Shown: positions 2,366 through 64,000, numbered from the stretch's first letter. The stretch: DNA of 64,000 bases from an uncultured Gemmatimonadaceae bacterium (GCA_963829055.1 CAWHHI010000004.1:544001-608000); one strand, 5' to 3'. Numbers and translations: made by a program. Notes: generated from the letters alone by a model not told the origin.

Positions 2366-3999
2366 TCAATGCGCGGGGCCGGTGCTGCCTCGGCCGCGGC
2401 CGGTCTTCCAGAGAAGCAGGAGCGGAAGGGCGCACAGCAGGATGATGCCGTTCAGCAGGTAGATCTTCGAGAACGCGAGCACGCTCGCCTGCGCCGAGAT
2501 CTGCCGGTCGAGGATGAAGAGCGCCTGCTGCTTGGCGACGATCGGGTTCACGCCGTGCGCCATGAGCCCGCGCGTGATCATGTCGAGGCGGCGCGCTGAC
2601 CCGCGATGTCGATCGCGCCGACGTGCTCGGTGAGCACCGCGTGGCGGGTGGCCGTGAAGCGCGACAGCAGCGTCGCCATGAGCGCGATGCCGAGCGAGCC
2701 GCCGAGCTGTCGCGTTAGGTTGTACAGCCCGGTGCCCTGCGCGAGCTGACGTGACCGATGAGCTCCGCCATCGACGCGCTCGTGAGCGGTACGAAGATGA
2801 GACCAAGGCCAACGCCACGGAGCACGAGTGGCCAGAACAGGTCACCGGTGCCGCTGTCGAGCGTGATCGCGACATCTGCCACATCGAAAACATGAACAGC
2901 CCCGACCCGGCGACGATCGTGTAGCGTGCGTCGAGCTTCTGCGCGTTCCTGCCGACGACCGCCATCGTGAACGCCGACGCGAGCGCGCCTGGCAGAATCA
3001 CCTTTCCCGTCTGCCACGCCGTGAATCCGTGCAGCGATTGCAGGAAGATCGGCAGCACGAACACGCCGCCGTAGAGCGCCAGACCGAGCACCGCGGCGAA
3101 CATGACGCCGGTCGCGAGCTGCCGGCTCTTCAGAACGCTGAAGTCGATGATCGGCTCTTCGGTCGTGAGCTCGCGCCAGATCAGCGCGACGCCCGACACG
3201 AGCGCCACGACGCCGAGCGTCGTCACGAAGCGCGATTCGAACCAGTCGTAACGCTCGCCGCGCTCGAGCATCCACTGCAGCGACCCGACCGTGAGCGCGA
3301 GCAGCAGGATGCCCGATGACGTCGATCGTTCTCGGCGCGCTCCTGATGCTCGGCGTTGCGCACGTACGCCATGACCATGATCGCGGCCAGGATGCCGAGC
3401 GGCACGTTGATGTAGAAGATCCACGGCCAGTTGTAGTTGTCGGTGATCCAGCCGCCTAACGTGGGACCGATCGTCGGTCCGACCATCACGCCGACGCCGA
3501 ACATCGCCTGACCGATGCCGGCCTCCTCCGGCGGGAACGACTCGAACAGCGTGGACTGCGCCGTGGAGAGCAGCGCACCGCCACCGAGCCCCTGAATGAC
3601 GCGCCACAGCATGAGCCCGCCGAGCGACGTCGCCGCGCCGCACATGAACGACGCGACCACGAACAGCATGATCGACCCGGTGAGATAGCGTCGACGGCCG
3701 AAGTACGCCGACAGCCATCCCGACATCGGGATCACGATGACGTTCGCGATGATGTAGCCGGTGGACACCCACGAGATCTCGTCGATCGTCGCGCCGAGGT
3801 TCCCCATCATGTGCGGGATGGCGACGTTCACGATCGACGTGTCGATGAGCTCGAGCACCGCCGCCAGCGTGACCGCGATGGCGATCAGGTACTTGTGCTT
3901 GTACTGGTCCTCGGCAGGCGCGACCGCCGGTGTGGCCGCCGCGGGCGCGTACGCCTCGGCGACCACGATCCCGGGGCTCTCGCTGACGGTCGTGCTCAT
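2366..3999 (-). CDS. emrB: DHA2-family MFS efflux permease (EmrB/QacA), frameshifted
   Basis: LELIDTSIVNVAIPHMMGNLGA...WVSTGY, RVIQGLGGG, GPTLGGWITDNYNWPWIFYINVP. Confidence 0.9.
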
Positions 4000-4004
4000 C
4001 GATG

Positions 4005-5173: not shown

Positions 5174-6573
5174 TCAATTCAGTTCCCGCGCACCGCCCTG
5201 CGAACGCGCGAGCGCGATGCGTGCGGCCTGGTACGCGGCGAGCGCGTCGACAACCTGCGTGCGCGCGCCGTTCAGCGAGAGCGAAGCGGTGAAGACGTCG
5301 GCGTTGCCGGCGACTCCCGCGCGGAAGCGCTCGCTGGCCTGGGCAACTTCCTGTTCCGCGAGTTGCACGCGCTCCCGAGCTGCAGCGACGGCTTCACGCG
5401 CGGATGCGAGATCGAGCAATGCGGTCCGTACTTCGACAGACGCCTGTTCGCGAAGATCACGCCGTCGCACGTCGATTTCGCGACGCAGCGCTGTCTGCTC
5501 CTCGGCGCGCCCTTCGCGACGAAGGCCGTCGAAGATCGGCAGGGACAGCTGGACGCCCCAGTTGTACGTCGGGAGCAATGCGCCGCCGTTCTTGCCAATG
5601 GATCCGTAGTCGCCGAACGCCGACAGACTGGGCAATCGCTCGGCGCGCACGGCGCCCGAGCTGTCGCTCGACCGCGGTGAGTTGCGCCTCGATGCTGCGC
5701 AGATCGGCGCGCCCACGTAGCGCCTGGTCGATCGCCGCTTGATCAGTCGGCAGCGCCTCGTCCATCCGCAACGCTGCGAGCGAGTCCGTCAGCGTCAGGG
5801 TGTGTCGAGCGGAAGACCGAGTTGCCGAAGCAGGTCGAGGCGAGTGCGGCCCCGGTCGTTGCGGGCAACAATCAGCTGGGCGCGGATGTCGCGAGCTGCG
5901 ACTGTGCGCGCGTGACGTCGAGGCCAACGCCAACACCGGCGGTGAGCTGGTCGCGTGCAATCGCGGAGCAGGTCTTCGGCGAGCGACGAGTCGGCGACAC
6001 GCGCGCCGAGCTGGGCATCGGCTCGCGCCGCGCGCACGTAGGCGACGGCGGCGTTCGAGGCGGCCTGCTCGGCGGCCTGGTCGGCGTCGAAGTCGCTCGC
6101 GCGTCGCTGAGGCCTTGGCGCTACGCACGCGTAGCGATAGCCGCCGCATCGAACAGCGATTGCGTGAAGTGGGCGCGCGCGTCGAACACGTTGACCGGAC
6201 CCTCGAGCTCGCCGTCGGGATCGAAGACCGGCGGTTGTCCGGTCGCCGTCGGGAAGTCGATACCGAACGTCGCGGTGTTGAGCGTGCGGCCGTTCTCGAG
6301 CGCCGACGCGGACACGTTAGGCAGCAGGTCGGCGCGGCGTTGCGTCACGCGCGCGTCCGCCTGTTCGGCGCGGAAACGTGCGGCCACGACCGTGCCATTC
6401 TGCTTCGCGGCGAGGCGGGCAGCGTCCCCTAACGAGATGCTGACGGGCGCGGCCGTCTGCGCGCGGACGCCCGAGAGCGCGAGCAAGGAAGCCGACACGG
6501 CGGTGACGATGGAGACGGCGACGCGGCGCGACGACGCGCCTTGGTGCGTGATAGCTGAATCGTTCACTGTCAT
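5174..6573 (-). CDS. TolC-family outer-membrane efflux protein, frameshifted
   Basis: Signal peptide, RRADLLPNVS, GVQLSLPIFDG, ASERFRAGVA. Sits in an operon with emrAB. Confidence 0.85.
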
Positions 6574-7478: not shown

Positions 7479-8569
7479 ATGCGATTCCTTCTTTGGTCTA
7501 ACAGCGTCACTGGCTCTCTCGCTGGCTTGACCGCCGTGGTGCTCATCGGCGGTGCCGACCATCAGTGCCGCGCAGACACCCGAGCGCCGCACGCTCGCGG
7601 GCAACGACGTCGCCGTCTACAACATCGCCGGCATCATGCGCGTGGAGGGCGGCACCGGGTCGGAGGTGACCGTCGAAGTCACGCGCGGTGGCGGCGACGC
7701 GTCGCGGCTTCAGATCCAGAGCGGATCGCATCCGCGGCCGAGAGACGCTGCGCGTCGTCTATCCCGATCGGCGCATCGTCTACCGCCAGGGCGATTCGGA
7801 TCGCGTGGCGCGGGCGCACGACGCTTCGCGTGGACGATGACGGCACCTTCGGCGACAACCATCACGACGACGGCCGCAGCGTCGACATCGTCGGGAGCGG
7901 CGACGGGCTCGATGCGCATGCGGACATTCGCGTCGTTGTCCCGCGCGGCAAGCGCGTCTCCGTCTATCTCGGCGTCGGCGAAGCGAAGATCGAGAACGTC
8001 GACGGCGATCTGTACGTCGACGTGAGCGCGGCGCCGGTGACGACCACGCACACGCGCGGCAAGCTCTCGCTCGACACTGGGTCCGGCGAGGTCCGCGTCA
8101 CCGACGCACAGGGCGAGATCGATCTCGATACGGGGTCGGGCAGCGTCGAGGTGGCGAACATCACGCGGGCCGTTCCTCAAGATGGACACCGGCTCCGGAC
8201 GCGTGCGCGCGATCGGACGTCGTGGTCGACGAGCTGGAGATCGACACGGGTTCCGGCAGCGTGCGGCTCGGCCAGGTGCAGTCGAAGCGCATCAAGCTCG
8301 ATAGCGGCAGCGGGTCGGTGGAGCTGGACCTGCGCGCGGACGTGGAGACGCTGCACGTCGAGTCGGGGTCAGGCGGCGTGACGCTCGGCATCCCGGAGTC
8401 GTTAGGCGCATCGATCCGCATCGAGACCGGCAGCGGCGGCATCGATACGGACATCCCGGTTCAGGTTCGGAAGACGGAGCGGAACTTCCTGTCCGGGACG
8501 ATCGGGGATGGCAAAGGTGAGATCACGATCGAGACCGGGTCTGGAGGCGTGAGACTGCGACGGTCATGA
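7479..8569 (+). CDS. DUF4097-type beta-strand repeat (putative adhesin) protein, frameshifted
   Basis: Signal-like N-terminus and many DTGSGSV/ESGSGGV repeats. Confidence 0.82.
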
Positions 8570-9418: not shown

Positions 9419-10142
9419 CTACCCGTCTCGGACGGGCACACGTCCGCCAGCGTACAGTCACCGCAGCGCGGGACTCTTCGCCTCGCAGACCCGGCGGCCG
9501 TGGAAGATCAGCAGGTGGGCGAGCATCGTCCAGCGGTCCCGCGGGAACAGGCCCATCAGCTCCTGTTCCACCTTCACGGGATCCGTCTCGCTCGTTAGGC
9601 CCAGGCGCATCGCCAGCCGGCCGACATGCGTGTCGACGACGACGCCCTCGTTCACGTCGAAGGCGTTGCCGAGGATGACGTTCGCTGTCTTGCGGCCGAC
9701 GCCGGGAAGCGTCACCAGCTCGGCGAGCGTCGACGGTACCTCGCCACCGTGGCGCTCGACGACCGCGCCGGCCATGCCGATGATGCTCTTCGCCTTGTTT
9801 CGGAAGAAGCCCGGTGCTCTTGATGATCTCCTCGACGTCCTCCTGCCGCGCGGCTGCCAGCGCCTCGACGGTCGGATACCGGGAGAACAGCACCGGCGTC
9901 ACCATGTTCACGCGCTTGTCGGTGCACTGCGCGCTGAGAATCGTGGCGACGAGCAGCTCGAACGGCGTCCTGAAATCGAGCTCGCAGTGCGCGTCCGGGT
10001 AGAGCGCCAGCAGCCGGTCGTAGAGAAGCGGCGGATTCGCCGGCGCGGTCGATCGCGCGACGCTTCGGCGCACGTTTCGCTTCGGCGTCACTTGGTTTTC
10101 GCCGTTGCTTTCGGCAGCCAGTTTCAGCGGCTTTCGCGCCAT
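9419..10142 (-). CDS. nth: Endonuclease III, frameshifted
   Basis: [18 protein letters not shown], Hh[27 protein letters not shown] and a C-terminal Fe-S Cys cluster. Confidence 0.93.
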
Positions 10143-10256: not shown

Positions 10257-12078
10257 TCAGAAGGGGATGTCCGCGTCCGGATCGGTCTCTGCGGCGCGAC
10301 GGATCTTCGCGACGCCGTGCCCGGCGCGGCTGCGCCGTTTGCGCGACGAGCGCTTCGCGAACGCGAGAATGTCCGTCGGCCGACCGTGCATTCAAGATAT
10401 CATCGGCCTCCAGCCATCCCTTCCGCGCCATGTCCACGCCAATCGACGACGACATCGAGTCCAATCGTGGAGTGCGCGTCGGGCCCGATCTCGATCGGAA
10501 CGCCGAGCGCCTTCGCGCGGCGGCAGTGTCGCCAGTCGAGATCGAGGCGATGCGGGTCGGCGTTGAGCTCCATCGCGACGCCCACGTCCGCGGCCTTCTC
10601 GATCATCGCGACCATGTCCACGGGATAGGGCTCCCGGACGAGCAGCAGTCGGCCCGTTGGATGGCCGAGGATCGTGAGTCGCGGGTCATCGAGCGCGGTG
10701 AGGATGCGCGTCGTCATCTCCGACTCGGTCATGCGAAAGCGCGAGTGCACCGAGCCGATCACGTAAGTCGAACCGGTCGAGCGTTGCATCATCGTAGTCG
10801 AGCTGCCCGGACGCCGAGGATGTCGGCTTCGATGCCCTTGAGGACCGTGAAATCCGTCGAGCGTCGCGTTCAGCTCGTCGATCTCGTCGTGCTGGCGCGC
10901 GACGTCATCGCGGCCGCAATCCGCCGGCGTAGAACGCAGACTGCGAGTGGTCGCTGATGCCGAGATACGTCCAGCCGCGCGCGCTGCGCCGCTTCGGCCA
11001 TGTCGGCGATGGTGGCGGCGCCGTCGGAGTAGGTGGAGTGACAGTGCAGCACGCCGCGCACATCGGCTCCGGCCGTCACGAGACGTGGGCAGCGCGCCGG
11101 TCGCCGCCGTGAGCTCGCCGTCGCCCTCGCGCAGCTCCGGCGGGACGTACGCGAGAGTCGAGCCAACGCGTAGAGCGCGTCCTCGTCGGCAGCGGGAACG
11201 CGCTCGCCGCGCGCATCGCGGACGACGTCGTCCATCGAGCGAGAAGCCGACGGCGGCGAGGAGCGTCGTCATCTGTGCGACGTGCGCTGCGCTCCCGGTC
11301 GCGCGCCAGAACGCCACCGCGAAATCGTCCTCCGGGCACGCAGTACAGGTCGAGCATCGTGCCGTCCACGTAGCGAATGGAGGCGGAGCCGTCCAGCGAC
11401 GGACGCGTCGACGACACCGGGCACGCGCGCGAATGACGCCGCAACGCCGTTCGGGTCGCCGCGCACGGCGGCAACGATGTCGATGTCGCGGACCGACCTC
11501 GCAGCGGCGACGCACGGACCCCGCGATCTCCGCCGAGATGACGTCCGGGTGGCGGCGTACCGACGAGAGCAGGAGTGCGGCATCGGCGTGGGCGCGCGGG
11601 AATAGCACGAGCGCGTGCGTCCGCCGCTTGAACGCGATGGCGTCGGCCAGGCGTTCGACCGTCTTCTCGCCGAACCCTTTGACCGTGGCGAGTCGGCCGT
11701 CGCGAGCGGCGACCTCGAGGTCATCGATGCGACGCGACGCCTAACGTGTCGTGAGATCTGCTGCATCTTTTCGGGCGAGAGGCCCGGGACGCGCATCAGC
11801 TCGAGCAGCCCGTCGGGCACGTTCATGCGCAGCTGCTCGAGGTAGCGCGACTCTCCGTTCTCGACGAGATCGGTGATCACGGCGAGCGTTGCGGAGCCGA
11901 CTCCCTTCACCTTCGCGAGCTCACCGGAGCGCAGGAGCGGCGTGAGGTCGTCGGTGTCGAGCGCGAGCACCGCTTTGGCGGCGCCGCGATACGCGCGCGT
12001 CTTGAAGCGGTTCTCGGCTCGAAGCTCGAGCAGGTCCGCGATCTCTGACAGGACGTGGGCCGCGGAACGCGAGTCCAT
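10257..12078 (-). CDS. polX: DNA polymerase X with PHP domain, multiple frameshifts
   Basis: ENRFKTRAYRGAA, AGSVRR...RDIDIV, ATGSAAH, PPELREG, LHCHSTYSDG, ILGHPTGRLL, ELNADPHRLDLDW, GPDAHS. Confidence 0.9.
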
Positions 12079-12221
12079 GGTCGGCCGCCTAACGCTTCGA
12101 GGTGGTGCGCACGTCGGTCGGCCGCCTATCGGCGAAGGGCGGAAACGACGCGGGCGCCCGCGATCATCGCGGGCGCCCGAATGTTGTCCTGCCGTACAGT
12201 CGGCGCGCTAGCGCTCGAGCG

Positions 12222-13840: not shown

Positions 13841-14522
13841 ATGCGAAAGACAGTGTTCACGTTTGCGTTCGGTGCGATGATCGCGCCGGCGCTGCTCGCG
13901 GCGCAGGATGCGACGAAGGCGGTTGCTGGCGGCGGCGAGGTCGCGCCGGGGTGGCAGATGCGGATCGATCCCCGCGCGGGCAGCGGCGACGCCACCGAAG
14001 TTCGTCGCGATGGGATCGGATTGCATGCGACGACCGGCTCGCGCGCGATCTACTGGCGCACCGGCGACGTCGGCGAAGGGCAACTACACGGTCGAGCGCG
14101 ACGTTCACGCTGTCGAAGCCGCCCGGTCACGCCGAGGCGTATGGGCTCGTCTTCGCCGGCAAGGACCTAACGACGCCGAAGCAGAACTACATGTACTTCA
14201 CGCTCGGCGGCAACGGCACGTACCTGATCAAGCACCGCGCCGGCGACGCCGACTCGCGAGATTCACACGATCGCGGACTGGACGCCGAGCGATGCGATCG
14301 CGAAGGCGGACGCGAGCGGGAAGAGCACCGACAAGCTCCGGTCGTGGTGGGCGCGCAGAAGATCCAGTACATGATCAACGGCAAAGAGGTGTACAGCATG
14401 GACCGCGCGAAGGCAGTTGGCGCGGGAACATGCTGGCGTCACGGATGGCATTGCGGGCATTCGCGTGAGCCACAATCTGGACGTGCATATTTCGGACTTT
14501 AAGATCACACCGAAGCAAGTAG
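13841..14522 (+). CDS. Secreted hypothetical protein (probable beta-sandwich, DUF1080/lectin-like), frameshifted
   Basis: GGAGG RBS, signal peptide MRKTVFTFAFGAMIAPALLAAQ, HAEAYGLVFAG, DGIAGIRVSHNLDVHISDFKI. Confidence 0.65.
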
Positions 14523-14625: not shown

Positions 14626-15530
14626 GTAGTACTGTCGCTGCGATCCGCACCGTGTTCAGATGCACCGCCACGCTGTCCTCGATATTCCGGCCGTAGCCGC
14701 CGGCGATCGTGATCGCGACCGGGATGCCGACCTCGCGACAGGCATCGAGGACCATCGCGTCGCGGCGCGCCAGGCCGTCGAACGTTAGGCAGAGACGGCC
14801 GAGCCGGTCGCCCTCGTGCGCAGTCGGCGCCCGCGAGGTAGATCACCAGGTCCGGCGCTGCCGCCGCGAGCACGCGCGGGAGCGCGTCGGCAAGCGCCGC
14901 GAGATAGACGTCGTCGCCGGTGCCGTCCGCCAGCTCGACATCGAGCGAGCCGGCGACTTTATGAAACGGGTAGTTGCGCCCGCCGTGCATGCTGAACGTG
15001 AACACGGAGTCGTCGCCGGCGAAGATCGCGTGCGTGCCGTTGCCCTGATGCACATCGAGGTCGACCACCGCAGCGCGTCGGATGCGACGGTCACGCTGCA
15101 GCAGCCGGATGGCGACGGCGACGTCGTTGAACACGCAGAATCCCTCGCCATGATCGGGGAAGGCGTGATGTGTTCCTCCGGCGAGGTTCATGGTGACACC
15201 GCGCTCGAGCGCCGCGGCGGCGGCCTCACACGTTCCACCAACGGCGCGAAACGAACGCTCGACCAACGACTCCGACCACGGGAGCCCAATGCGGCGCTGC
15301 TCGGCTTCGCTCAACTCGCCGGCGATGAGTGCGTGGACGTAGCGCTCGGTGTGCACGAGCAGTAACGCGTCGATCGATGCGCGCTCGGGTTCGTGCATGT
15401 CCTCGGGCGCTACGAGGCCGCTCGCGAGCACGGCTTCGCGCAACAGCGCGTACTTGGCGATCGGAAAGCGGTGGCCGGGCGGCAGGGAAACCGTGTAGCG
15501 CGCCGACGTCCAGCAGTGGAGCGGTGTCAT
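14537..15530 (-). CDS. Histone deacetylase family protein, frameshifted; 3' end approximate
   Basis: GHRFPIAKY, NLAGGTHHAF, GFCVFNDVA, DLDVHQGNGT, YLAGAD, AGGY. Confidence 0.92.
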
Positions 15531-15705: not shown

Positions 15706-17044
15706 CTACATCGCCGGCGTGCCGCCGGGCGTCTTGTAGACCACGCCGTTCTTCATCACGAACACCGGCTTCTCCATCGCCTTGATGTCGGCGATCGGGT
15801 CACCGGGTACCGCGACGATGTCCGCCCACTTGCCAGTCGTCAGCGTTCCCACGTTGCGGTCCCAGCCGAGCAGCTTCGCGGCGTTGCTCGTGCCGGCGAC
15901 GATCGACTGCATGGGCGACATGCCGCCCCACTCGACCATGAGCGTGAACTCGTGGCCGTTCGCGCCGTGCGGACCCACGCCGGCATCGGTGCCGAGCGCG
16001 ATGGGCACCTTGTTCGCCATGGCGATCCTGACGGCGTTTCGCATCGACTGCGCTGCGGCGAGCGCCTTCTCCGCGCGGAGCCCCTTGAGCACGCCGCTCT
16101 TCGCCGCGCGCTCCACCGCTTCGCCCGCGCGAGAGCGTCGGCACGAGGAACGTGCCCCTTCTGCGCCATCATGCGCGCGCCTTCCTCGTCGAGGAACGAG
16201 CCGTGCTCGATCGACGCGACGCCTGCACGCACGGCGATCTTGATTCCCTCGGCGCCATGCGCGTGGGCGGCGACCTTGCGCTCGAGCTTCGTCGCCTCGT
16301 CGACCATCGCCTTCATCTCCTCGTACGTGTACTGCGTCGCGCCGACGGCGTCACCTTCGGAGAGCACGCCGCCGGTCGCGCACGTCTTGATGACGTCGGC
16401 GCCGTACTTCACCTGGTAGCGCACCGCGGCGCGGATCTGGTCCGGGCCGTCGGCGATGCCGGTCTTGAAGTCGCCGTCGTCGAGACCGGGCTTGAAGCCG
16501 TTCTCGTCGCAGTGGCCGCCCGTGATGCCGAGCGAGTGCGCGGCGGTCTGCATGCGCGGACCGATCACCCACCCTTCGTTGATCGCCTTGCGGATCGCGA
16601 TGTCGTCGAAGTGCGGCGCGCCGACGTTGCGAATCGACGTGAAGCCGGCGATCAGCGTGTTCCGCACGTTGAACCGACGCCGAGGATCGCGCCGAACGAA
16701 TCGACGTCGCGGACGGCCGCGTCATCGCCAGCGGGGTCGCCTAACGTGCGTCCGATGACGTGCGTGTGCGCGTCGATGAACCCGGGCAGCAGCGTCGCGT
16801 TGCCGAGGTCGACGGTGCGTGCGCCGCTCGGGATCGTGACGGAGCTCGCCGGCCCGACGGCGACGATGCGATCGTCGGTGACGACGACGACGCCGTTCTG
16901 AATCGGCGCGGCGCCCGTGCCGTCGATCACGCGCGCGGCCTTGAGCACGACGGTGCCCGAGCCCTTGATGGGGTTCGTCGGGGCCTGAGCCCAGGCGAGA
17001 GTCGGAAGCGCCAGCGCCAGCGTGACCAGGGTTCGCATCGTCAT
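15706..17044 (-). CDS. Secreted amidohydrolase (Xaa-Pro dipeptidase-like), frameshifted
   Basis: TLLPGFIDAHTH, ITGGHCD, VIKTCATGGV, VAAHAHG, SIEHG, ALGTDAG. Confidence 0.9.
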
Positions 17045-20420: not shown

Positions 20421-21489
20421 CTACCGGGCGGTAAAATCCGTTTCCGGGGTCACTGCTCGACACGTCTCGGCGATCAACTCCGCGGCGCGATCCAGATCCT
20501 CGAGGCTCACCATCTCGTTAGGTGAGTGCATGTAGCGGTTCGGGATCGACAGCAGCGCCGTCGCCACACCGTCGCGCGCCACGTGGATGGCGTCGGCGTC
20601 GGTCCACGACTCGCGCCCCGCCGCGTGTACCGTGAAGGGAATCGAGAGACGCGTTGCCGTGTCGCGCAGCAGCGAGTACACGACCGGCGAGATGATCGAC
20701 CCACGCGTGAGCACGGGCCCCCCGCCGATCTTGTGGTGGCCGTGCTCCTTCTTCTCGGCGCCCGGGTAGTCCGTCGCATGCGTCACGTCGACCACGATCG
20801 CCATTTGCGGGGCCGACGCGCGTCGCGCTCACGCGCGCGCCGCCACCCTGAAACGCGATCTCCTCCTGCGTCGTGGCCACCGCGACGACTCGTGCCGCGC
20901 CAGGCTTGTCGGCGTAACGGCGCAGCGCCTCGAGGACGATGAATGCGCCGATGCGGTCGTCGATGGACCGCGAGACGATGCAGCTATTCGGGAAGTCGAT
21001 CGTGCGCGAATCGATGACGCCGGGATCGCCGACACTGACGATGCGCTCCGCATCTTCGCGCGACGCAGCGCCGATGTCGATCCAGAGATCGGTCATCTCG
21101 GACGCCTTCTTCCGGTCGTCGGGCTTGATCACGTGAATCGGTTTCTTCCCGATGACGCCGAACACGTGGCCGTCGCGCGCCATGATGCGGATGCGCTGGC
21201 CGACCAACACCTGCGTATCCCAGCCACCGATGCCGGAGATGTAGAGGTAGCCCTCGTCATCGATGTACGTGATGATGACGCCGATCTCGTCGATGTGGCC
21301 GGCGAGCATGATGGTCGGCGAGCCCTCGGCGTTCACGACCGCCAGGCTGTTGCCGGCGACGTCGTTCGTGACTTCGGCGAAGGGACGGGCTTCGTCGCGC
21401 CAGAGTTTTGCGGGAGCCGACTCGAACCCGGACGGACCGGGCGTGTCGAGGAGGCGCTTGAGGAAGGCGATTGACGATTCGGAGAGCAT
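20421..21489 (-). CDS. M42 family metallo-aminopeptidase, frameshifted
   Basis: TPGPSGFE, LAGHIDEIG, IDDRIG, TTQEEI, VDVTHATD, TDAD, RYMHSPNE. Confidence 0.93.
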
Positions 21490-50558: not shown

Positions 50559-50682
50559 GCGCTGGTATCGAGCGTACGGATTCTGTATGCTCTGCGCCTG
50601 CCGATGACTCAGAGTCCTCGCTGTCGCTCGATGACACGCTTCTCCGCCTTCCGCCCTCCGCCTTCCTCAGGCCCGCTCCGCG

Positions 50683-52785
50683 TTAGCTCGCCGTCTTCGG
50701 CGCCAGATACTTCGTCAGCCAGCCCTGCACCTCGTTCCACCACAGCCGCTGGTTCTGCGGCTTCCCGATCCAGTGACCTTCGTCGGGGAACACCACGAGA
50801 CGGCTCGGGACGCCCTGCCGCTGGAGCGACGTGAACATCGACAGGCCCTCCGTATACGGCACGCGGTAGTCGAGCTCGCCGTTCGTCACCAGCGTCGGCG
50901 TCTTGAACTTCCCGGCGTAGAGATGCGGCGAGTACACGCGATACTGCTCGCGCATCGCCTTCGGATCCCAGAACGGGCCGCCGTACTCCCACTCCGGGAA
51001 CCACAGCTCCTCCGTCGCCGCGTACATGTTCTCGAGGTTGAACGGACCCGCGTGCGACACGAGCGCCTTGAAGCGCGTCGAGTGACCGGCGATCCAGTTC
51101 ACCATGTAGCCGCCGAACGATCCGCCCGCCGCGCCCATGCGCGTCGAGTCCATCCACGTGTTGCGCGCGAGCGCGGCGTCGAGGCCGTTCATGAGATCCG
51201 TGTAGACCTTGCCCGCCCCACGCCTTCGACACGTCGTCGACGAACTTCTGCCCGTAGCCCGTCGACCCGCGCGGGTTGATGATCACGAGCGCCGAGCCCG
51301 TCGCCGCGAACATCTGGTAGTTCCAGCGGCCGTGCCAGTTGTCGAGCCACGCGCCCTGCGGTCCGCCGTGGATCAGCAGGATCACCGGATACTTCTCGCC
51401 CGGCGTGTATTGCGGCGGCTTCACGATGAAGCCCTGCACGCTGTCGCCGCCCGCGCCCTTGAACCAGAAGTCCTCGGCCGGATTGAGCGCGAGCTGCGCG
51501 ACGAGCGCGTCGTTCACGTGCGTCGCCTGACGAGTGTCCGTCGCCCGCGCGCCATCGAGCGACGCCGCGTACACCTCCGGCGGCCGGTTCGTCGCGTCGC
51601 GCATCCAGACGACCGCTTTTGCATCGCGCGAGAACGAGAACCCGAGGTTGTTGGACTCTCCGATCACGAGTGCCGGTGCGCCGGTCGCGACGCCGTCCGC
51701 GCCTAACGTGGCGCGATACAGCTTGTCGCGTCCGGCGTCGGTCGTCGACACGTAGACACCGCTTTGCCGTCGGGCGCAAACGTGTACGCCGTCCGCGTTC
51801 CGATCCCACGTCGGCAGCGCCTCGGTCGACGTCTTCTTCGCTCGATCGTAGAGCATGAGCCGGAACCGGTCCGACTCGAACCCGCCACGCTTCTGCGATC
51901 CGTACGCGATGTACTTGCCGTCCGGCGAGTACACCGGGTTCTGGTCCGCGCCGACGTTGCGACTTCGTGATCACCGTCGCGCGTGCCGCCGCTGACAGGC
52001 ACGACGTACAGGTTCACGTCCGTCGTCCACGCGTCGGCGCGCCCCTGATCCTTCGCCGTGTACGCGATCTCTCGGCCGTCGGGCGAGAACGCGTAGCCCT
52101 CGCTGCCGCCGAACGGACCGGGCGGCACGTCGTACTTGCGCGCCGGCGTCAGGTCTCGCGGCGTCGTCACCGTCGAGCGCCGACGACGAACAGGTGCGAG
52201 CGCGTGCCTTCATCCCACGCGTTCCAGTGGCGGAACAGCAGGTTGTCGGCGACGTGCGCCTTGACCTTGTTGTCTTCCTTCGCCTTGTCCTTCTGCGGCG
52301 TTGCACGCGTCGGTCGTGCAGTCAGGCCACACGGCGGACACGAACGCGAGACGTTCGCCCGTTGGCGACCACACGGGGCCGCTCGCGCCGCCGTTGAGCG
52401 TCGTGAGCTTGCGGCGCCCGCTGCCGTCGGCGTTCGCCACCCAGAGTTGCCCACCCGCGGTGTACGCCACGCGGCGCCCGTCCGGCGACCACCGCGCCTC
52501 GGCGGCGTGCGTCGTGTCGTCGGGGAACGCTCGGGCAGCGGAGCTGCCTAACGTCTGGACGTACGTCGTTGCCGCACGTCGATTCGCTTCGACATCGGTC
52601 GTCCGCACCGCGTACAGCATTGTTCGTCCATCCGGCGACAGCTGCGGGTCGGACACCGACTTTATCGCCGCGAAGTCGTCGAACGTCATCGGGCGGCGTG
52701 TTTGCGCGCCGAGCGTCGTGACGCACGTCGTGACGAGCGTGCCCGGAGCGAACAACGCGAGAACGAATAGCGATCGTACAGTCAT
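50683..52785 (-). CDS. S9 family (dipeptidyl/acylaminoacyl) peptidase, frameshifted
   Basis: PD40-like SPDG repeats, IHGGPQ, NPRGSTGYG, GGSFGG, DYRVP, FPDEGHW. Confidence 0.92.
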
Positions 52786-52850
52786 CGCGAGTCTTCCTTG
52801 TCGCCGCGTGTGAGCGGCTCGGTCGTTTATCCGGTCGTTAGGCCGATCCG

Positions 52851-54361
52851 TCAGGGAGCCTGCGGTCCGGCAGTGCGCTTGTACCAGTCCACCTTGGTCT
52901 GGTCGCGCTTCGTTCCGCCAGCCAACGTCTCCTTCATCATCGCCTCGACTTCGGCGATCTCCCGCGGCGCCCGCGAGATCCACTCGACGCCCTGCTCGGT
53001 GCCGATGTAGTCGTCCTCGATGCGAACGCCGATGTTCTTGAACTTCTCGACCGCCGGCCGGAGCTTCGCGATCAGCGCATCGTTCTTCGCCGTCTTCGGC
53101 AGGATCTCGAGCAGGTTCTCACGCACGTAGATGCCGGGTTCGATCGTGAACGCGCTGCCGGTGGCGATCGTACCGGTGAAGTAGAACTGATCCGGGTCGT
53201 GCACCTCGAGTCCGATGCCGTGCCCCAGCCCGTGCATGTAGTAGAGCTCGAGCTGCGCGCACTGCTGCGGCTGTTGGGCCGAGCCGCAGTCGTACGTCGC
53301 GTTAGGCGATTCGATGAGCCCGACGCGCGCGAGGCCCGCGGCCAACACCGCTGACGCCGAGTCGGACATGAGCGATGCCTTGGCGCCGAGCTTCGCCTGA
53401 CGCTCCGCGGCCGCCTGCGCGTCGCGCACGATCTGGTAGATCGCGCGCTGGTCGGCTGTGAACGTGCCGCTCACCGGCACGGTGCGCGTGACGTCCGCCG
53501 CGTAGCCGCGGTACGACGCGCCAATGTCCATGACGACGACGTCGCCGGCGTTCATGAACCGATCGTCGGCGTTGTAGTGGAGCGTCGTCGAGTTCGGACC
53601 CGAGCCGACGATCGTGCCGAACGACGGGCGGTCCGCTCCGTTTCGCCGGAACGTGTACTCGATGAGCCCCTGAATCTCGAACTCGTTCATGCCCGGCTCG
53701 ATGGCGCGCATCGCTTCCTTCTGCGCGTCGACCGTGACTCGTGACGGCTTTACGAATCAGGTCGAGCTCGGCCGGGCTCTTCGTCCCGCGAAGCATCATC
53801 ACGTACTGGTTCGCCGACGCGAGCTTCACCGACGGGTGCGTCGCCGCGAGGGCGCGAACGAACTGATCATCGCGGCTCAGGACGCGCCGCTTCCTCACCC
53901 TGGCGCTCGCCCAGCCGCACGTCGCCGACCACGTACAGCTGCGACGTCGAGCTGAGCAGCGAGTCGAGCACCGGCGCGAAGCTGCTCAACCGGTCGAGCG
54001 TCGATGCCGGTTGCCTTCGTCGCGCCCTCGGGTCCGAAGCGCTTGCCGGTCCAGACTTCCGCGGCAGGGTTCGCGATCCTCGACGAACAACGTCGAGCCG
54101 ACGTCTGGCCGCCGCGCTTCACGATCACGAGCGCGGCGTTCGGCTCGTTGTAGCCGGTGAGGTACGTGAACGGCTCGTTCTGATAGAACGACAGGTAGTC
54201 CTGCGCGGGCTCCTGCGCCCCGATCGCGAGGAGTACGCCGTCCTGCATCTTCGCGGCGAGTGCCGCGCGCCGCTGCGCATACTCGGCTGCCGGAACCTGG
54301 GCGCCGAGCGACGAGATCGCAGCGGCGAGACCGAGCGAGCGAGAGAAAGACGGAGCCGCAC
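52851..54361 (-). CDS. pepP: Xaa-Pro aminopeptidase (M24B), frameshifted
   Basis: FTYLTG, KSPAEL, TLHY, MDIGA...ADVTRT, HGLGHGIGLEVHD, TIEPGIY, GVRIEDD. Confidence 0.9.
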
Positions 54362-55743: not shown

Positions 55744-55773
55744 AAGCGATCGCTCGGTCCGCCACCAGCAGCG

Positions 55774-56434
55774 TTAGGCAGGAACCGCGTCCACGCAGTG
55801 CAGCTTCCCGATCGTCTCGCATCGACACGACCTTGAAGCCCGACGCCTGCATGTACTTGTTCACATCCGTCTTGCTGAAGAAGTAGACCGGGCAGCCTAA
55901 CGCCGTGAGGCGCACCTTCCGGATCGGGGCACGCCACGTCCAGAGGCGCGGCCACGCCGAGAGGAACCGCCCACGCGTCATCTTGCGAATCATCTTGAGA
56001 CGCGACGTCGGGTCCGCGAAGTAGTCCCACAGCCCGATCGCGATCGTCTCGTCGAACACGTCGCTGCGGTTCCAGTCGACGATGTCCATCTGCGCGAAGT
56101 CCGTGCGACCCGCAACGCCTTCCTTCTTCGCGAGATCGCGCGCGAGCTTGAGCATCTCCGGCGCGACGTCCACGCCCATCACGCGCGTGGCGCCATGCTT
56201 CGCCAGGCTCGCCACGAAGCGCCCGGACCCGCAGCCGATGTCGCAGACCGTCTTGCCCGTGAGATCGCCGGACTTCCGCATGACCCAGTCGAATCGCTCG
56301 TAGATGTCACGACGCAGCCATTTGTCGAGCGATCGCGCGAACGCGCTCTTGTTCTCGCCGGTATAGATCGCGTCGAAGTCCTTGGCGACGTTGTTCCAGT
56401 ACTGCGCGACCTTGATGTCCTCGGTGGTCTTCAT
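55774..56434 (-). CDS. Class I SAM-dependent methyltransferase
   Basis: VCDIGCGSG, GVDVAPEML. The true stop is inferred as TAA 55774 after a frameshift. Confidence 0.88.
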
Positions 56435-58260: not shown

Positions 58261-58385
58261 AAGGGAATCAATCCGCCAGATCAGACGAATCCGTTGCCCC
58301 TTCGTCTGAGATACTTGTTGACGCAGTCCTCGGCGTCCTCGGCGGTGACCTGGCGGTTGTCGTTGCAGTCACATGATGAGATCGC

Positions 58386-59554
58386 CTAACGCAGCAACAG
58401 CTTTGCGATCGTCTGCAGCTGCATGTTGGACGTCCCCTCGTAGATCGCGCCGATCTTCGCGTCGCGATAGAACTTCTCGACCGGATAGTCCTTCGTGTAG
58501 CCGTAGCCGCCGAACAGCTCGAGCGAGAGCGACGTCACGCGCTCGCGCGACCTGCGACGAGAACAGCTTCGCCATCGCGCCTTCGCATCGCGATGTCGTG
58601 GCCGGCGTCCTTGAGCCGCGCCGCGTTGTACACCATGAGCCGCGCCGCCTCGAGCTCCGTGCCGCCTGCGCGAGCTGGAACTGGATCTCCCTGGAACTCG
58701 GCGAGCGGCTTGCCGAACTGCGTGCGCTCCTTCACGTAGTCGTCGCCGCGCCGAGCGCGCCCGCGCCACGCCGATCATCTGCGCGCCGATGCCGATGCGG
58801 CCTTCGTTCAGCGTCTCGATCGCGATCTTGTAGCCCTGGCCCACCGGACCGAGCACGTTCTCCGTCGGGCACCTCGACGCCGTCGAGAATCAGCTCCGTC
58901 GTGCTCGACGCGCGGATGCCGAGCTTGTCCTCCTTCTTGCCGACGGCGAAGCCCGTGCAAGCTCGCGCTCGACGATGAACGCCGTGATCCCCTTGTAGCC
59001 CGGCTGACGGATTCGCGTTCGCGAACACGACGTAGATCTCCGCCTCGGCGCCGTTGGTGATCCACATCTTCCGGCCGGTGAGCACCCAGCGGTCGCCGCG
59101 CTGCTCGGCGCGCGTCGCGAGCCCGAATGCGTCGGAGCCGGACGACGGCTCGCGACAGCGCGTACGCGCCGACCGTGTCGCCGTCGAGCCGCGGCAGGTA
59201 CTTCGCCTTGAGCGCGTCGCTGCCGTACCGGCTGATCGGATAGTTCACGAGCGTGTTCTGCACGTCGCACACGATCGCCGCGGACGCGTCGACCTTGCTG
59301 ATCTCCTCGACGGCGAGCGCGACCATCATGCAGCGAGCCGCCGGCGCCGCCGTACTGCTCCGGCACCTCGATCCCCATGAGGCCCATCTCGAAGTACTTC
59401 GGGACGAGCGCGGGATCGATCTTCGCCGCGCGCTCCATCTGCCTGCACGCGCGGGCGAACTTCGTCGTTCGCGAAGCCGGCGACGGCGTCGCGGAACATC
59501 TGCTCGTCCTCGGAGAGGATCGTGAGCGGCGGATGTGCGGTCTGTTGCAGTCAT
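58386..59554 (-). CDS. Acyl-CoA dehydrogenase, multiple frameshifts
   Basis: GLMGIEVPEQYGG, KMWITNG, KKEDKLGIRASST, LNEGRIGI, ERTQFGKPL, FGGYGY...RDAKIGAIYEGTSN. Confidence 0.92.
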
Positions 59555-60715: not shown

Positions 60716-62293
60716 TCAGGGCGCCGCGGCAGCCGCCGCCGGCGCGTTCCCTCGAAGTTGCATGGCGACACGCACGAGCGCGAGCACACGCTCGCGGAAC
60801 AGGAACCACAGCGCGCCCGCGTAACAGACGGCACCCGCCACGACCTTGATCACGAGCGTCGCCAGGCGCGGCGTCGTCGGCGGAATGACGAGGGCGATCG
60901 CGAGCACACCGACCGCCATGATAGCGGTCGATACGAGCGCGGGGCGGAGGACCGGCAGGTACGATCGCGGCCCGATTCCCAGGTGCGTCGCCACCCGCCG
61001 CAGCAGTGGGAACATGACCATCGGTGCGTGGCAGACGATCCACGCGGCGGCGATTCCATTGATACCCCATCGGGCCCCGACGGCGAAGCCTAACGGGAGA
61101 ACGATTGCCGCGATGACGCTCCGCTTCATCGTGTAGCGCGCGTCGCCGGTAATCGTGAGTGCTTGCGAGAGGATCGGTGTGAGTGAGCGGATGCCGGCGT
61201 ACAACACGAGCAGCCGCAGCGGCGTGACGGCCGGCTTCCACTTGTCGCCCACGATCGCCAACAGATCGTTGGCGACGAGCGCGAGCCCCATGGTCGCGGG
61301 GAGCAATGCGAGCGCGAGCGTCCCGGTGATCTGCGTGAGGTACCGCGTGAGCAGCGCCGAGTCATGCTTCGCCGCCGAGAAGATCGACGACGTCACCCCC
61401 GTGAGGAGACTCGTGACCTTGTCGACGATCGAATAGGCGAGGTTCCACGCAAACGTGTACGCACCGAGCGCGGCTGCGCCGAGCAATTTCCCGGCGACGA
61501 AGAAGTCCGCGTTCTGGAACACGTACCACGCGATCGACCCGATGATGATATCGCGACTGAGATGGAGCGCACCTCGAAGCTCGTCGAACTTCGGGCGTCG
61601 GAATGGCAGCGGCAACGACGTCAGCGCGATGACCGTCGCGATACTGCTGCCGAGCAGCGCGGCGAGGACCAGCGCCCAGTAGCGGAGTCCGGCGAACGCC
61701 AGCGTGATCGACGCCGTCGCGGTGACGAGGCTGTTCACACCGTCGAGAAACGCGACGCGGCCGAATCGCAGCTGTCGCTGAAGCGCGGCCTGGGGCACCG
61801 TGCGGAGCGACATGATGACGAAATTCCCGCTCAACACGATCACGACCCACCGGAGTTCGGGGGCCTTGAAGAACGCCGCCATCGGTCCGGCGATGATGCA
61901 CGAGAAGATGAAGCCCGCCACGCCGATGATCGTCGAGAGCGAGTGCATCTGGCCGAGTCGGTCGCCGCGCAGGTCACGCATGGCGATGATCGTCGTCCCG
62001 AGCCCTGCCTCGTTCATCATCGTGAGCAGCCCGAGGTACACCGCCGCCATGCCCACGAGACCGTAGTCTTCCGGCGACAACAGTCGAGCGACCGCCAGGG
62101 TCGATACCCACGCCGCGATCTGCGTGACCCACTTGATGGCCCCCGTCCACGCGACGCCGCGAACGAGGCTGCGGTCCAGCGTCGCGCGATCGTAATTCCG
62201 CCGCGCCTCGAGGTCGGCGTCGCTGGATTGCGGTGTCGCGGCCGTGCCAGCCGGTGGTGTGGTCACGATCGACGGCGGTTGCGGCGCGCTCAT
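60716..62293 (-). CDS. Wzx-type polysaccharide flippase
   Basis: RGVAWT...ARLLSPEDYGLVGMA, NADFFVAGKLLGAAALGAY; many TMs. Confidence 0.9.
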   Translation of the reverse strand: MSAPQPPSIVTTPPAGTAATPQSSDADLEARRNYDRATLDRSLVRGVAWTGAIKWVTQIAAWVSTLAVARLLSPEDYGLVGMAAVYLGLLTMMNEAGLGTTIIAMRDLRGDRLGQMHSLSTIIGVAGFIFSCIIAGPMAAFFKAPELRWVVIVLSGNFVIMSLRTVPQAALQRQLRFGRVAFLDGVNSLVTATASITLAFAGLRYWALVLAALLGSSIATVIALTSLPLPFRRPKFDELRGALHLSRDIIIGSIAWYVFQNADFFVAGKLLGAAALGAYTFAWNLAYSIVDKVTSLLTGVTSSIFSAAKHDSALLTRYLTQITGTLALALLPATMGLALVANDLLAIVGDKWKPAVTPLRLLVLYAGIRSLTPILSQALTITGDARYTMKRSVIAAIVLPLGFAVGARWGINGIAAAWIVCHAPMVMFPLLRRVATHLGIGPRSYLPVLRPALVSTAIMAVGVLAIALVIPPTTPRLATLVIKVVAGAVCYAGALWFLFRERVLALVRVAMQLRGNAPAAAAAAP

Positions 62294-64000
62294 CCGCCGC
62301 CGTCAGCGTTAGGCGTGAGCGTCCATCGACCGTTCGCGACCTTGTACATGTCCGTGAACGCGTTGGCGTAGTCCACGGCATACGCGTAATCGCCCACCCC
62401 CAGCCAATGCGCGACCGACGCGGCGAGGAGATAGCGTCGATCGAGCAGTGGCGTGGGGAACGTGCCCGACATGAGCACTCGCGCCGTCTCGCCGACAATG
62501 CTTCGCCGACGCTGCCGTCTCACGATGTCCTTCTGGCGATCGCCCCACTGATCGATCGCACTGGCAGGCAGCGGGATCGGACATGGCTCGTGTCCCGGAT
62601 AGGTCTGCCACGCGACCTGTTGGATGGTCGACGGGAAGAACTTCAGGGCCTCGTTGTACAGGCGGTGTCCCACGCCGAAGTCGGCCGGAGCAGCGGCCAC
62701 CGCCTCGATCAGTTCGTAGTCGTAGAACGGGAGATGGAACTCCAGCCGATGCAGGTCGACATCCTCGAAATGCAGCGTGAGATGGCGACGCTGGTCGTGA
62801 ACCATTCGGAAGAAGTAGAGCTCGCGGCCCGGCTCTGCCTCGCATCGCACCTCGTCGAACGCCTCACGCGTACCTTGATGCACGAGGTCGCGAACCGCGG
62901 CGGACATGTCGCGCCGGAAGACACGGATCGGGACGGCAATCTCGTGTTCGGCGAAATACCTGGTGACTGCTTCGTCGCGCTTGCCCGCGCGCAGCAACGC
63001 GATGACGCTCGCGTAGACGCCGACGAACCCGAGACCAACGCTGCCTCCGTCGCCGGACCAGATCAGGCCGGGCCGCTCGGGTGGCAGCGTCGCTCGCTTC
63101 GTCGACGCGCCCCAGACATCAGCCATCGTCATCGACCAGCGGACGGGATCGGGGGGCCGCGGTATGCGTGTGTGTATGGACTGCACGATACCCGCGAACG
63201 CGTCGCCGAGGATCTGATCCTTCGTGCCGTCGGTGGCGAAGTTGAACGTGTGCAGCTTGACGCCGCGGGCAACGAGCTCGGCGACGAGGCATCGCGAGTC
63301 GAGTCCGCCGCTCAGGAACGCGACCGAGGTTGTATCAGATCCCAACCGTCGGTCCACGGCGCGACTGAACAGCGCGTGCACCTTCTCGGCGGCCTGCGCG
63401 ATCTGGATTTTCTCCTCCGGCACCGCCGCAATGTTCCAGTACCTCGACCGACGGACCGCGCGGTTCTCGAACAGCACGACTTCGGCATCGCGAATCGCGT
63501 AGATGTCGCGGTACGCCGTGCGATCCGCCAACGGGTAGCCGAGCGCCAACGTCTCCAGCGCGCCGCGAACGTCCATCACTTTCGGCAGACTCCGAAGCCC
63601 TTCGAGGACGCGAAGCGCGCCGGCGAAGTACACGACGTCGTCGGTGACGGCGTAGTAGATCGGCCGCACGCCAAGTTTGTCCGCGATGAGCGCGACCGAG
63701 CCGCTACGCTCGTTGAAGTGCAAGCCCGCGAAGCAGCCGATGCTCCGCGCTGTCGTCGAGAAATCACCCCGGTTCCACGCGTCGTGAAGGCGCGCAATGT
63801 CGGCAGCGCGTCCCTGCATGAGTCCATCGGCAAGGAGCGGCTCGCCAGCGACGAGCGTCGCACCTACGCCAGCGTCGCAGCGAAGAGAGCTGGTGTCGAA
63901 TGCTCCGGTCTCGACGTAGACGATCGCCCCGCGACTGAACGGGACCACGCTCGCCGAGTCCTGCGGCCGGCGTGAGACCAACCCGCGGAGCTCATCGATC
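62290..64000 (-). CDS. Asparagine synthase-related amidotransferase (5' end outside the window)
   Basis: ADKLGVRPIYY, FLSGGLDSR, WSGDGG, LPFYDYELIE. Confidence 0.85.
   Translation of the reverse strand, partial: IDELRGLVSRRPQDSASVVPFSRGAIVYVETGAFDTSSLRCDAGVGATLVAGEPLLADGLMQGRAADIARLHDAWNRGDFSTTARSIGCFAGLHFNERSGSVALIADKLGVRPIYYAVTDDVVYFAGALRVLEGLRSLPKVMDVRGALETLALGYPLADRTAYRDIYAIRDAEVVLFENRAVRRSRYWNIAAVPEEKIQIAQAAEKVHALFSRAVDRRLGSDTTSVAFLSGGLDSRCLVAELVARGVKLHTFNFATDGTKDQILGDAFAGIVQSIHTRIPRPPDPVRWSMTMADVWGASTKRATLPPERPGLIWSGDGGSVGLGFVGVYASVIALLRAGKRDEAVTRYFAEHEIAVPIRVFRRDMSAAVRDLVHQGTREAFDEVRCEAEPGRELYFFRMVHDQRRHLTLHFEDVDLHRLEFHLPFYDYELIEAVAAAPADFGVGHRLYNEALKFFPSTIQQVAWQTYPGHEPCPIPLPASAIDQWGDRQKDIVRRQRRRSIVGETARVLMSGTFPTPLLDRRYLLAASVAHWLGVGDYAYAVDYANAFTDMYKVANGRWTLTPNADGGG

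Follow-up and report, generated by a model that had tools for sequence, protein, structure and literature searches.

An eight-letter DNA word repeated genome-wide in a lineage-specific manner in Gemmatimonadaceae, and uptake of self DNA as its possible cause

The eight-letter sequence GCCTAACG, which reads CGTTAGGC on the opposite strand, is confirmed here as a lineage-specific, genome-wide DNA word of an uncultured Gemmatimonadaceae bacterium. We examined it in a 64,000-nucleotide stretch of the assembly (contig C4, positions 544001–608000 of genome G000; GCA_963829055.1, CAWHHI010000004.1), which we will call the window, and in the assembly as a whole (7.78 Mb in 20 contigs, 66.7% GC, 86% complete). 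An earlier note, made from the window alone, had suspected a genome-wide signal from 51 sites with CCTAAC, 49 with CCTAACG, and 39 with all eight letters; a search of the window reproduces these counts and the site coordinates exactly, and G000 holds 5004 copies of the full word (2457 forward, 2547 reverse), approximately one per 1.5 kb or ~0.64 per kb. That a sequence-specific drive acting at the level of DNA built the word up is, in our judgement, established. For the biased step, uptake of self DNA, by analogy with the DNA uptake sequences (DUS) and uptake signal sequences (USS) of other bacteria, is the reading that we would put first, with a probability of roughly 0.45.

In the window, the 39 exact copies (both strands counted) compare with 0.85 on average, and at most 4, in 100 dinucleotide shuffles, none of which reaches 39, and CCTAAC is found 32 times on the plus and 19 times on the minus strand against an expectation of 5.8, in DNA with a GC content of 0.65–0.68 along its length. 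Genome-wide, the word has the highest ratio of observed to expected counts of all 8-mers, with an order-3 Markov model from which the word and its neighbours were masked predicting 15 copies, that is, an enrichment of ~330-fold. The excess persists under a codon-preserving shuffle, one of the two refuting checks named in the earlier note: when codons are permuted inside each of 6842 open reading frame (ORF) calls, which preserves the proteins and the per-gene codon usage, 20 shuffles give 158.6 ± 13 copies (maximum 189) against 3310 observed, a 21-fold excess. The ORF calls span 76% of G000 and the assembly has frame breaks, so that the densities of 0.56 per kb inside ORF calls and 0.90 per kb outside them are only an approximate split. 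The word thus has the copy number that one looks for in an uptake sequence (hundreds to thousands of copies, about one per kb, above a codon-aware expectation).

All four reading frames that the earlier note had named occur among the ORF calls of the window (xCG-TTA-GGC, xxG-CCT-AAC-Gxx, xGC-CTA-ACG, and xxC-GTT-AGG-Cxx), and across G000 the four stop-free frames hold 1310, 934, 616, and 450 sites, the two stop-reading frames none. The effect on codon usage is considerable: 1310 of the 2898 TTA codons (45%) lie inside the word, which also contains 218 of 855 TAA stops (25%) and 182 of 1752 TAG stops and encodes 22% of ALG, 25% of TLG, and 27% of PN peptides genome-wide. Five ORFs of the window end in a stop codon supplied by the word (TAA at 34071, 36562, and 42535, TAG at 50553, and a minus-strand TAG at 22913); those at 22913, 36562, and 50553 had been pointed out before, whereas two other minus-strand stops proposed at 55774 and 58386 match no called ORF.

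The Amidohydro_3 gene (window 23305–24981), aligned by codon with 20 relatives, illustrates how sites come about. Lineages rich in the word write GCG-TTA-GGC or GGC-CTA-ACG where others encode the same residues with CTC or CTG, the synonymous changes that create sites going to the rare codons TTA, CTA, and CCT. Amino acid replacements create the word too, from PPGG or PPAG to PPNG in the genus of the window, and from VPAE or VPPE to VPNE and from ALK to ALG in other lineages; one ALG position bears the word in two separate clades. In two congeneric loci of ~79% nucleotide identity, 2 of 8 (L008) and 6 of 10 (L009) window sites are identical, or 8 of 18 when pooled, compared with a baseline of 20% for any 8-mer; five and six sites, respectively, are private to these loci, and sites that are not shared differ by ~2.5 letters on average. 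From the congener and orthologue comparisons it follows that sites arise from near-matches by point substitution, are kept above baseline, and turn over. The constraint lies on the DNA and not on the protein, as had been proposed from the window, in view of the codon-shuffle excess, the use of four frames, flanks that carry almost no information, and the residue changes that create the word.

Aligning all 5004 sites reveals approximately zero information beyond the eight letters, the flanks showing a mild avoidance of G at positions −1 and +8, as well as a periodicity of three bases, a consequence of frame preference. A dispersed repeat of the repetitive extragenic palindromic or miniature inverted-repeat transposable element type does not fit, since information is ~0 past positions −1 and +8 and there is no conserved sequence or hairpin. 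Within the word, the CCTAAC core is strict and the outer positions are tolerant: among one-mismatch neighbours, ACCTAACG is raised 78-fold, GCCTAACA 65-fold, CCCTAACG 51-fold, and TCCTAACG 11-fold, C or T at position 8 is raised ~16-fold, GCATAACG is raised 16-fold, and the remainder stand at 0.7–3.7 times expectation. The window agrees, its 12 hexamer sites other than the exact 8-mer deviating at position 1 or 8 alone (ACCTAACG five times, CCCTAACG three times, TCCTAACG and GCCTAACA twice each). No one-mismatch neighbour is depleted in G000 relative to the motif-masked Markov expectation, and the pattern of tolerance looks like a protein-binding logo rather than a repair footprint.

Copies are spaced more evenly than chance would place them, as in uptake sequences. 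Gaps shorter than 200 bp number 215 against 611 expected (a deficit of ~3-fold), gaps of 400–1500 bp are found at ~1.1–1.3 times expectation, and gaps of 3–10 kb fall below it (133 against 182 for 5–10 kb). This over-even spacing is interference between neighbouring sites, and an in-situ bias acting on each site separately would not predict the deficit of short gaps.

Like uptake sequences, the word is also used in both orientations, and its replichore polarity is at most weak. Neighbouring sites have approximately random relative orientation (2589 same, 2395 opposite), with pairs less than 100 bp apart divided into 14 "+−", 16 "−+", 23 "++", and 18 "−−" (the inverted pair at C18:97495 is an isolated example), and orientation does not vary significantly across 68 windows, each 100 kb long (p = 0.21 by chi-square). 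On contig C16, the left arm has 99 plus and 146 minus sites and the right arm 182 plus and 164 minus. Between ~500 and 600 kb of this contig (near 550 kb), GC skew and gene orientation switch, the gene-strand bias going from +0.7 to −0.8, which is consistent with a replication terminus; at so clear a switch, a polar signal would have shown up. Chi and the FtsK orienting polar sequences (KOPS) show a strong leading-strand bias and exceed expectation only a few-fold. Our word resembles them, and the architecture imparting sequences (AIMS), as an over-represented 8-mer, those being read by DNA-processing machines, and differs in an orientation ratio of 49:51 and an enrichment of tens- to hundreds-fold. 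The earlier suggestion of a Chi-like or KOPS-like signal thus did not survive the strand-bias check, of which a weak correlation with skew, discussed below, is all that remains. Apparent runs of sites on one strand in another genus (g51) came from the tabulation of places; in the contigs themselves the sites are interleaved (23 plus and 27 minus in G151:C1, 25 plus and 44 minus in G061:C2).

The distribution of the word is patchy and graded within the family. All seven genomes of the genus of the window carry 2500–5100 copies; among 30 relatives, the six congeners and G014, a member of another genus with 6360 copies in 5.1 Mb, are rich, G010 takes a middle position, and most have 6–60 copies, under the 100–400 of a reversed-word control. 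Counts in 201 sampled genomes of the family run from 1 to 7821, 63 genomes in ~25 of 68 genera having at least 200 forward-strand copies (by hand count) and ~127 being poor, and density is graded from ~0.05 to 1.3 per kb across lineages. Contrasts are found even within genera: 66 copies (G115) against 3200–4100 in genus g52, and 895 against 4469 in g43, with a further such contrast in g22. For the g52 contrast, the alignment of G115 with G209 (~75% identity over 2.6 kb) is too distant for site-by-site comparison, and the gene chosen is not orthologous in the four rich genomes. In 119 genomes from other parts of the phylum, counts mostly stay below 100, with one genus modestly raised (up to 726 against 293 in the control). 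In a FastTree phylogeny of Amidohydro_3 orthologues (73 rows; a tree of one gene, not of the species), rich loci fall into at least three clades and the starred branches force at least four changes of state. The tallies take in five genomes flagged as unpublished (G013, G048, G094, G254, and G281), all of them motif-poor, and no conclusion depends on them.

A word so tied to lineage serves as a strong barcode. Three stretches of G000 that lack it (C6:5440–55037, C11:1–46789, and C6:591808–623330) are 31–50 kb long and lie at or near contig ends; two have a GC content of 0.70–0.73, and all encode housekeeping enzymes rather than mobile elements. FtsK, a TrpG-type amidotransferase, DAHP synthase, peptidase M17, and FolD are encoded there and have second copies on C16 at 47–60% identity. 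The likeliest explanation of these stretches, which the missing word has served to flag, is chimeric joining or an origin in another organism; the reported contamination of the assembly is 3.95%.

Comparison of letters indicates that the amplified word is CGTTAGGC, the R′ core together with the C that precedes it, as found in attC sites of the chromosomal integrons of this order; the identity with their R′ box (attC consensus R″ RYYYAAC, R′ GTTRRRY) is letter for letter. In motif-poor relatives, the few copies are clustered on one strand at intervals of ~550 bp. Forty of the 65 copies in G021 lie in three one-strand arrays (on C43, C80, and C95), of which the two inspected, C80 and C95, are attC arrays. 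The loci L001 (G021:C95:1–20000), L002 (G019:C3), and L003 (G021:C80) are large, classical chromosomal integron cassette arrays, one-stranded, with attC sites that run GCCTAACA...CGTTAGGC; the L003 array adjoins an integrase, and one attC site of a relative folds as a hairpin (z = −5.8). The array on G021:C95 has ~27 attC sites in 24 kb, very uniform and of two alternating types. Motif-poor related genomes thus hold the word mainly within genuine attC arrays, and the link to integrons exceeds mere resemblance.

G000 itself encodes an integron integrase (C20:208041–208958, minus strand; 265.7 bits at a cut-off of 265), and ~9–12 widely spaced attC-like pairs with the full 8-mer at both ends lie in C20:119–205 kb. 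These are a negligible share of the 5004 copies, and the fold of one of them scores only slightly above its shuffles (z = −1.6 and −2.3). Of 77 CCTAAC...GTTAG pairs 35–140 bp apart in G000, only those in this region are attC-like. The copies in the window and genome-wide form neither inverted-repeat hairpins nor one-strand arrays beside intI: unlike attC sites, they are solitary, without partner box, and lie inside conserved genes. The earlier description of a match to the attC core without the arrangement of attC sites is therefore accurate, the flanks being uninformative and spaced pairs few.

How might uptake have spread such a word? The competence machinery (type IV pilus, ComEA, and ComEC) would take up word-bearing fragments preferentially and homologous recombination would install them, so that word-creating alleles would be over-transmitted within the species until there was about one copy per uptake-sized fragment. 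Sites would accumulate one by one as point substitutions of the ordinary kind, at the expense of codon preference and at times of the amino acid sequence. The uptake model explains the density, equal orientation, logo-like tolerance, interference in spacing, turnover, and lineage specificity of the word, and its absence from foreign DNA. Because the word equals the R′ core, the specificity of the drive probably derives from the integron repeat that was already there, or became adjusted to it.

The DUS of Neisseriaceae is a 10–12-mer read by the minor pilin ComP in Neisseria, and the USS of Pasteurellaceae has a 9-mer core. The present word shares with both a short, non-palindromic form, a density of about one per kb in both orientations, a location within genes in the frames that tolerate it, an origin by point substitutions that include amino acid changes, over-even spacing, lineage specificity, absence from foreign DNA, and a genome that encodes competence machinery. 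It differs from them in belonging to another phylum, in its identity with an integron attC core, in its patchiness at the genus level within one family, and in that no dialects were seen in poor relatives: no alternative over-represented 8-mer stood out in the loci longer than 9 kb among 80 related loci, the top words being GC-rich codon strings.

The type IV pilus, ComEA, and ComEC are all encoded in G000. Its pilMNO locus contains two major and one minor pilin-like gene, and there are three orphan pilins. One orphan pilin that we followed has N-terminal matches in all 31 related genomes compared and an extended match (to ~residue 92) in only three of six congeners, with the downstream pieces in a separate frame. 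An orphan type IV pilin gene at C3:516826–517212 (L117:5826–6212) lies directly 3′ of polA on the same strand.

Several observations weigh against uptake and should be considered together. ComEC, ComEA-type HHH_3, and pilin-like matches do not separate rich from poor relatives, each being present in 31 of 31, so that competence genes are permissive only; among the ComEC, ComEA, and pilin proteins examined in these genomes, no candidate receptor, of the kind that ComP is for Neisseria, was found. Inverted pairs, which in Neisseria DUS act in the style of terminators, are not enriched in G000, and orientation anticorrelates weakly with GC skew (Spearman −0.34, p = 0.004, 68 windows). A plain uptake model would not lead one to expect identity with the attC core, which has to be accounted for by a further assumption. 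We know of no uptake experiment and no natural transformation in this phylum, and a literature search (subscription journals and supplements lying outside it) found neither uptake sequences nor natural transformation in the Gemmatimonad phylum; the same search found no description of the word as a genomic signal, the text matches listed being primers or unrelated. Lastly, a preprint on the cyanobacterial highly iterated palindrome HIP1 (GCGATCGC) reports over-even spacing there too, for a word of unsettled function (bioRxiv 10.64898/2026.06.24.733823).

A more specific proposal, which we regard as a long shot worth stating, is that some Gemmatimonadaceae have a self-DNA recognition system, most simply an uptake receptor, keyed to their own integron core site, the genome-wide spread of the word being a by-product of molecular drive. 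As far as we know, sequence-specific uptake of DNA has been established for just two families of Proteobacteria, and the origin of such words is debated. If the proposal were true, uptake sequences would for the first time be documented beyond the Proteobacteria, and uptake specificity would for the first time be linked mechanistically to integrons; transformation would then favour the import of cassette arrays and of DNA from the same species. Being identical with the attC core, the word is tied to the cassette gene pool; for Vibrio, one article describes transformation as feeding cassettes to chromosomal integrons (PMC12614218). The dozens of rich and poor sister lineages in this abundant, mostly uncultured soil phylum are a natural experiment for phylogenetic profiling of the reader.

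The word might instead be driven in situ, by an enzyme (e.g., a tyrosine recombinase that descends from an integrase, or an endonuclease involved in nicking or repair) that nicks or binds near-matches and leaves repair or gene conversion biased toward the full word, with no uptake at all. We consider this unlikely, while granting that much fits: the word coincides, but for one added base, with the R′ core that integron integrases bind and cut, poor relatives such as G021 keep most copies in one-strand arrays, amplification in several clades of the single-gene tree is what a shared, pre-existing reader would give, and sites are made by point changes from near-matches. Against it, the integrase exceeds the cut-off in 18 of 31 relatives, including many poor ones, is not found over cut-off in the rich G002 and G004, and is fragmented in the rich G014; as its distribution does not follow the word, we rejected it as the reader. 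The variant GTTAGAC is common in attC arrays, and the corresponding 8-mer, GTCTAACG, shows no enrichment in G000 (24 copies, 21 expected), which makes the tolerance profile different from GTTRRRY recognition. A bias acting per site also leaves the shortage of close neighbours unexplained, and in G000 there is neither a Vsr match nor a depleted neighbour.

Somewhat less credible is a selected chromosomal signal, in which an abundant chromosome-organising, segregation, or mismatch-repair protein would bind or nick the word, sites being needed every 1–2 kb and kept by selection. The depletion of both short and long gaps, the retention of sites between congeners above baseline, and the sharp logo with its strict core would all suit such a protein. 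Selection on each site would, however, have to beat rare codons and residue changes at thousands of places, and the graded density among lineages and the lack of strong replichore polarity, unlike KOPS or Chi, do not suit it. Close relatives with 6–50 copies, and G115 with its 66 copies in a rich genus, indicate that the word serves no essential function.

It is improbable that the word is methylation-linked in the manner of HIP1, accumulating through modification-dependent repair or discrimination. As described in the HIP1 preprint (bioRxiv 10.64898/2026.06.24.733823), HIP1 is likewise an 8-mer of similar abundance, with thousands of quasi-periodic copies in coding and non-coding DNA, two methylases recognise it, and its function is debated, an uptake role being among the proposals. 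Unlike our word, HIP1 is palindromic, has cognate methylases, and is phylum-wide; the present word is asymmetric, is confined to parts of one family, and has no methylase that tracks it, so that a HIP1-type, methylase-linked palindrome can be set aside. Its asymmetry and its adenines are like those of type IIG/ISP sites, and G000 has two adenine-methylase candidates. One is an Eco57I/MmeI-like methylase fused to an SNF2/ResIII helicase (C8:73551–78317; L097:5551–10317), frame-broken in G000, ~1000–1100 amino acids in relatives, and present in 30 of 31 genomes of the order regardless of the motif; such conservation is unusual for a restriction-type enzyme. The other is a Dam-like gene, found in 13 of 31 relatives and not found in the rich G014. 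G000, at 86% completeness, has no match to DNA_methylase (C5), N6_N4_Mtase, N6_Mtase, or Vsr, and no T-variant neighbour is depleted; a footprint of very short patch repair or of a methylase was rejected on these grounds. No methyltransferase, integrase, or competence gene searched tracks the word across the 31 relatives. Among the analogues listed in the earlier note, a methyltransferase origin, like Chi and KOPS, is not supported, and an uptake-like drive fits best.

That the copies are attC remnants, or landing sites (attG) for gene cassettes, is very improbable and largely refuted. The idea draws on the identity with the attC core and on the integrase and attC-like pairs of C20, and it fails on the flanks of the 5004 sites, which have no attC-like sequence or symmetry, on the scarcity of spaced pairs, mostly without attC-like interiors, and on the origin of sites by point substitution, not insertion, within conserved genes; a cassette landing at most of these positions would, moreover, disrupt a gene. 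attG sites need only GWT, according to a preprint (bioRxiv 10.1101/2022.09.11.507474).

An artefact of assembly or base calling, which the indel errors of this long-read-like assembly and its many genes split over two frames might suggest, is excluded by the word's abundance in six other members of the genus (260–1170 contigs each), its presence in dozens of other genera, and short-read contigs of four independent metagenomes, which agree with G000 at covered motif sites; the second refuting check of the earlier note thus leaves the word standing. These contigs, from soil, rhizosphere, and sediment, span window 30001–40000 at 90–99% identity, and none of the best supported 40 of 397 differences listed, on which the comparison rests, falls at a covered motif site. 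Near-identical strains are present in many soil metagenomes.

Table 1. Sites of the word and its one-letter variants in the window, from an exact-word or hexamer search, with codon contexts from our own ORF calls and gene names where assigned
Sequence	Position	Strand	Context
GCCTAACG	3454..3461	+	in minus-strand MFS gene, ACG-TTA-GGC (TLG)
GCCTAACG	6315..6322	-	CTG-CCT-AAC-G (LPN)
GCCTAACG	8400..8407	-	TCG-TTA-GGC (SLG)
GCCTAACG	9593..9600	-	GGC-CTA-ACG (GLT)
GCCTAACG	11739..11746	+	beyond ORF calls
GCCTAACG	12087..12094	+	beyond ORF calls
GCCTAACG	14783..14790	-	deacetylase-family gene, CTG-CCT-AAC-G (LPN)
GCCTAACG	16739..16746	+	ACG-TTA-GGC (TLG)
GCCTAACG	17314..17321	+	M28 peptidase gene, GGC-GTT-AGG-C (GVR)
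GCCTAACG	18943..18950	+	CGG-CCT-AAC-G (RPN)
GCCTAACG	19254..19261	-	ACG-TTA-GGC (TLG)
GCCTAACG	20137..20144	-	CGC-GTT-AGG-C (RVR)
GCCTAACG	22913..22920	+	TAG stop of minus-strand ORF 22915-23130
GCCTAACG	23547..23554	-	Amidohydro_3 gene, CCG-CCT-AAC-GGC (PPNG); PPGG/PPAG in motif-poor relatives
GCCTAACG	25314..25321	+	ACG-TTA-GGC (TLG)
GCCTAACG	28260..28267	+	GTG-CCT-AAC-G (VPN)
GCCTAACG	30130..30137	-	1700-aa AAA_16/Sortilin-Vps10 gene, TCG-TTA-GGC (SLG)
GCCTAACG	31364..31371	+	1700-aa AAA_16/Sortilin-Vps10 gene, CTG-CCT-AAC-G (LPN)
GCCTAACG	32402..32409	+	1700-aa AAA_16/Sortilin-Vps10 gene, TCG-CCT-AAC-G (SPN)
GCCTAACG	34071..34078	+	GCC-TAA, stop of ORF 28974-34076
GCCTAACG	36035..36042	+	CGC-CTA-ACG (RLT)
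GCCTAACG	36562..36569	+	GCC-TAA, stop of ORF 35971-36567
GCCTAACG	37304..37311	+	CCC-GTT-AGG-C (PVR)
GCCTAACG	39930..39937	+	M61 peptidase gene, CGC-CTA-ACG (RLT)
GCCTAACG	41301..41308	+	GTG-CCT-AAC-G (VPN)
GCCTAACG	42535..42542	+	GCC-TAA, stop of ORF 41197-42540
GCCTAACG	43399..43406	-	TGC-CTA-ACG (CLT)
GCCTAACG	44600..44607	+	CAC-GTT-AGG-C (HVR)
GCCTAACG	47414..47421	+	GCG-CCT-AAC-G (APN)
GCCTAACG	50553..50560	-	CGT-TAG, stop of ORF 49641-50558
GCCTAACG	51701..51708	+	beyond ORF calls
GCCTAACG	52546..52553	+	ACG-TTA-GGC (TLG)
GCCTAACG	52836..52843	-	beyond ORF calls
GCCTAACG	53300..53307	-	M24 peptidase gene, TCG-CCT-AAC-G (SPN)
GCCTAACG	55772..55779	-	TGC-CTA-ACG (CLT)
GCCTAACG	55895..55902	+	GCG-TTA-GGC (ALG)
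GCCTAACG	58384..58391	+	beyond ORF calls
GCCTAACG	61088..61095	+	CCG-TTA-GGC (PLG)
GCCTAACG	62307..62314	-	ACG-CCT-AAC-G (TPN)
ACCTAACG	2713..2720	-	variant (position 1 G>A), hexamer search
CCCTAACG	6427..6434	+	variant, hexamer search
ACCTAACG	14165..14172	+	variant, hexamer search
ACCTAACG	20516..20523	-	variant, hexamer search
GCCTAACA	23686..23693	+	variant (position 8 G>A), hexamer search
ACCTAACG	24496..24503	-	variant, hexamer search
CCCTAACG	25801..25808	+	variant, hexamer search
GCCTAACA	32027..32034	-	variant, hexamer search
ACCTAACG	33743..33750	+	variant; congeners L008 and L009 both have the exact word here
CCCTAACG	34385..34392	+	variant, hexamer search
TCCTAACG	45167..45174	-	variant, hexamer search
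TCCTAACG	46361..46368	+	variant, hexamer search

The metagenome contigs also bear on the quality of the assembly. Contigs of three runs show single-base differences from G000 at window positions 35001 and 35949, and since such indels fit the frame-split genes, the assembly seems to carry indel errors. Genes split in this way include an MFS transporter, an amidohydrolase, and an S9 peptidase (window 2366–3999, 15706–17095, and 50683–52785). Summed contig depth in the four metagenomes rises to 75–2100 at window 33007–33340 and 37015–37348, against ~10 elsewhere, and loose contig ends are numerous at 33047–33167 and 37068–37076; these may be short segments common to many organisms, or repeats. 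At window 32020, one metagenome contig has a 12-base insertion among 12-base near-repeats (CAACCnGT...) in the 1700-residue AAA_16/Sortilin-Vps10 gene, which is a variation in repeat-unit length between strains.

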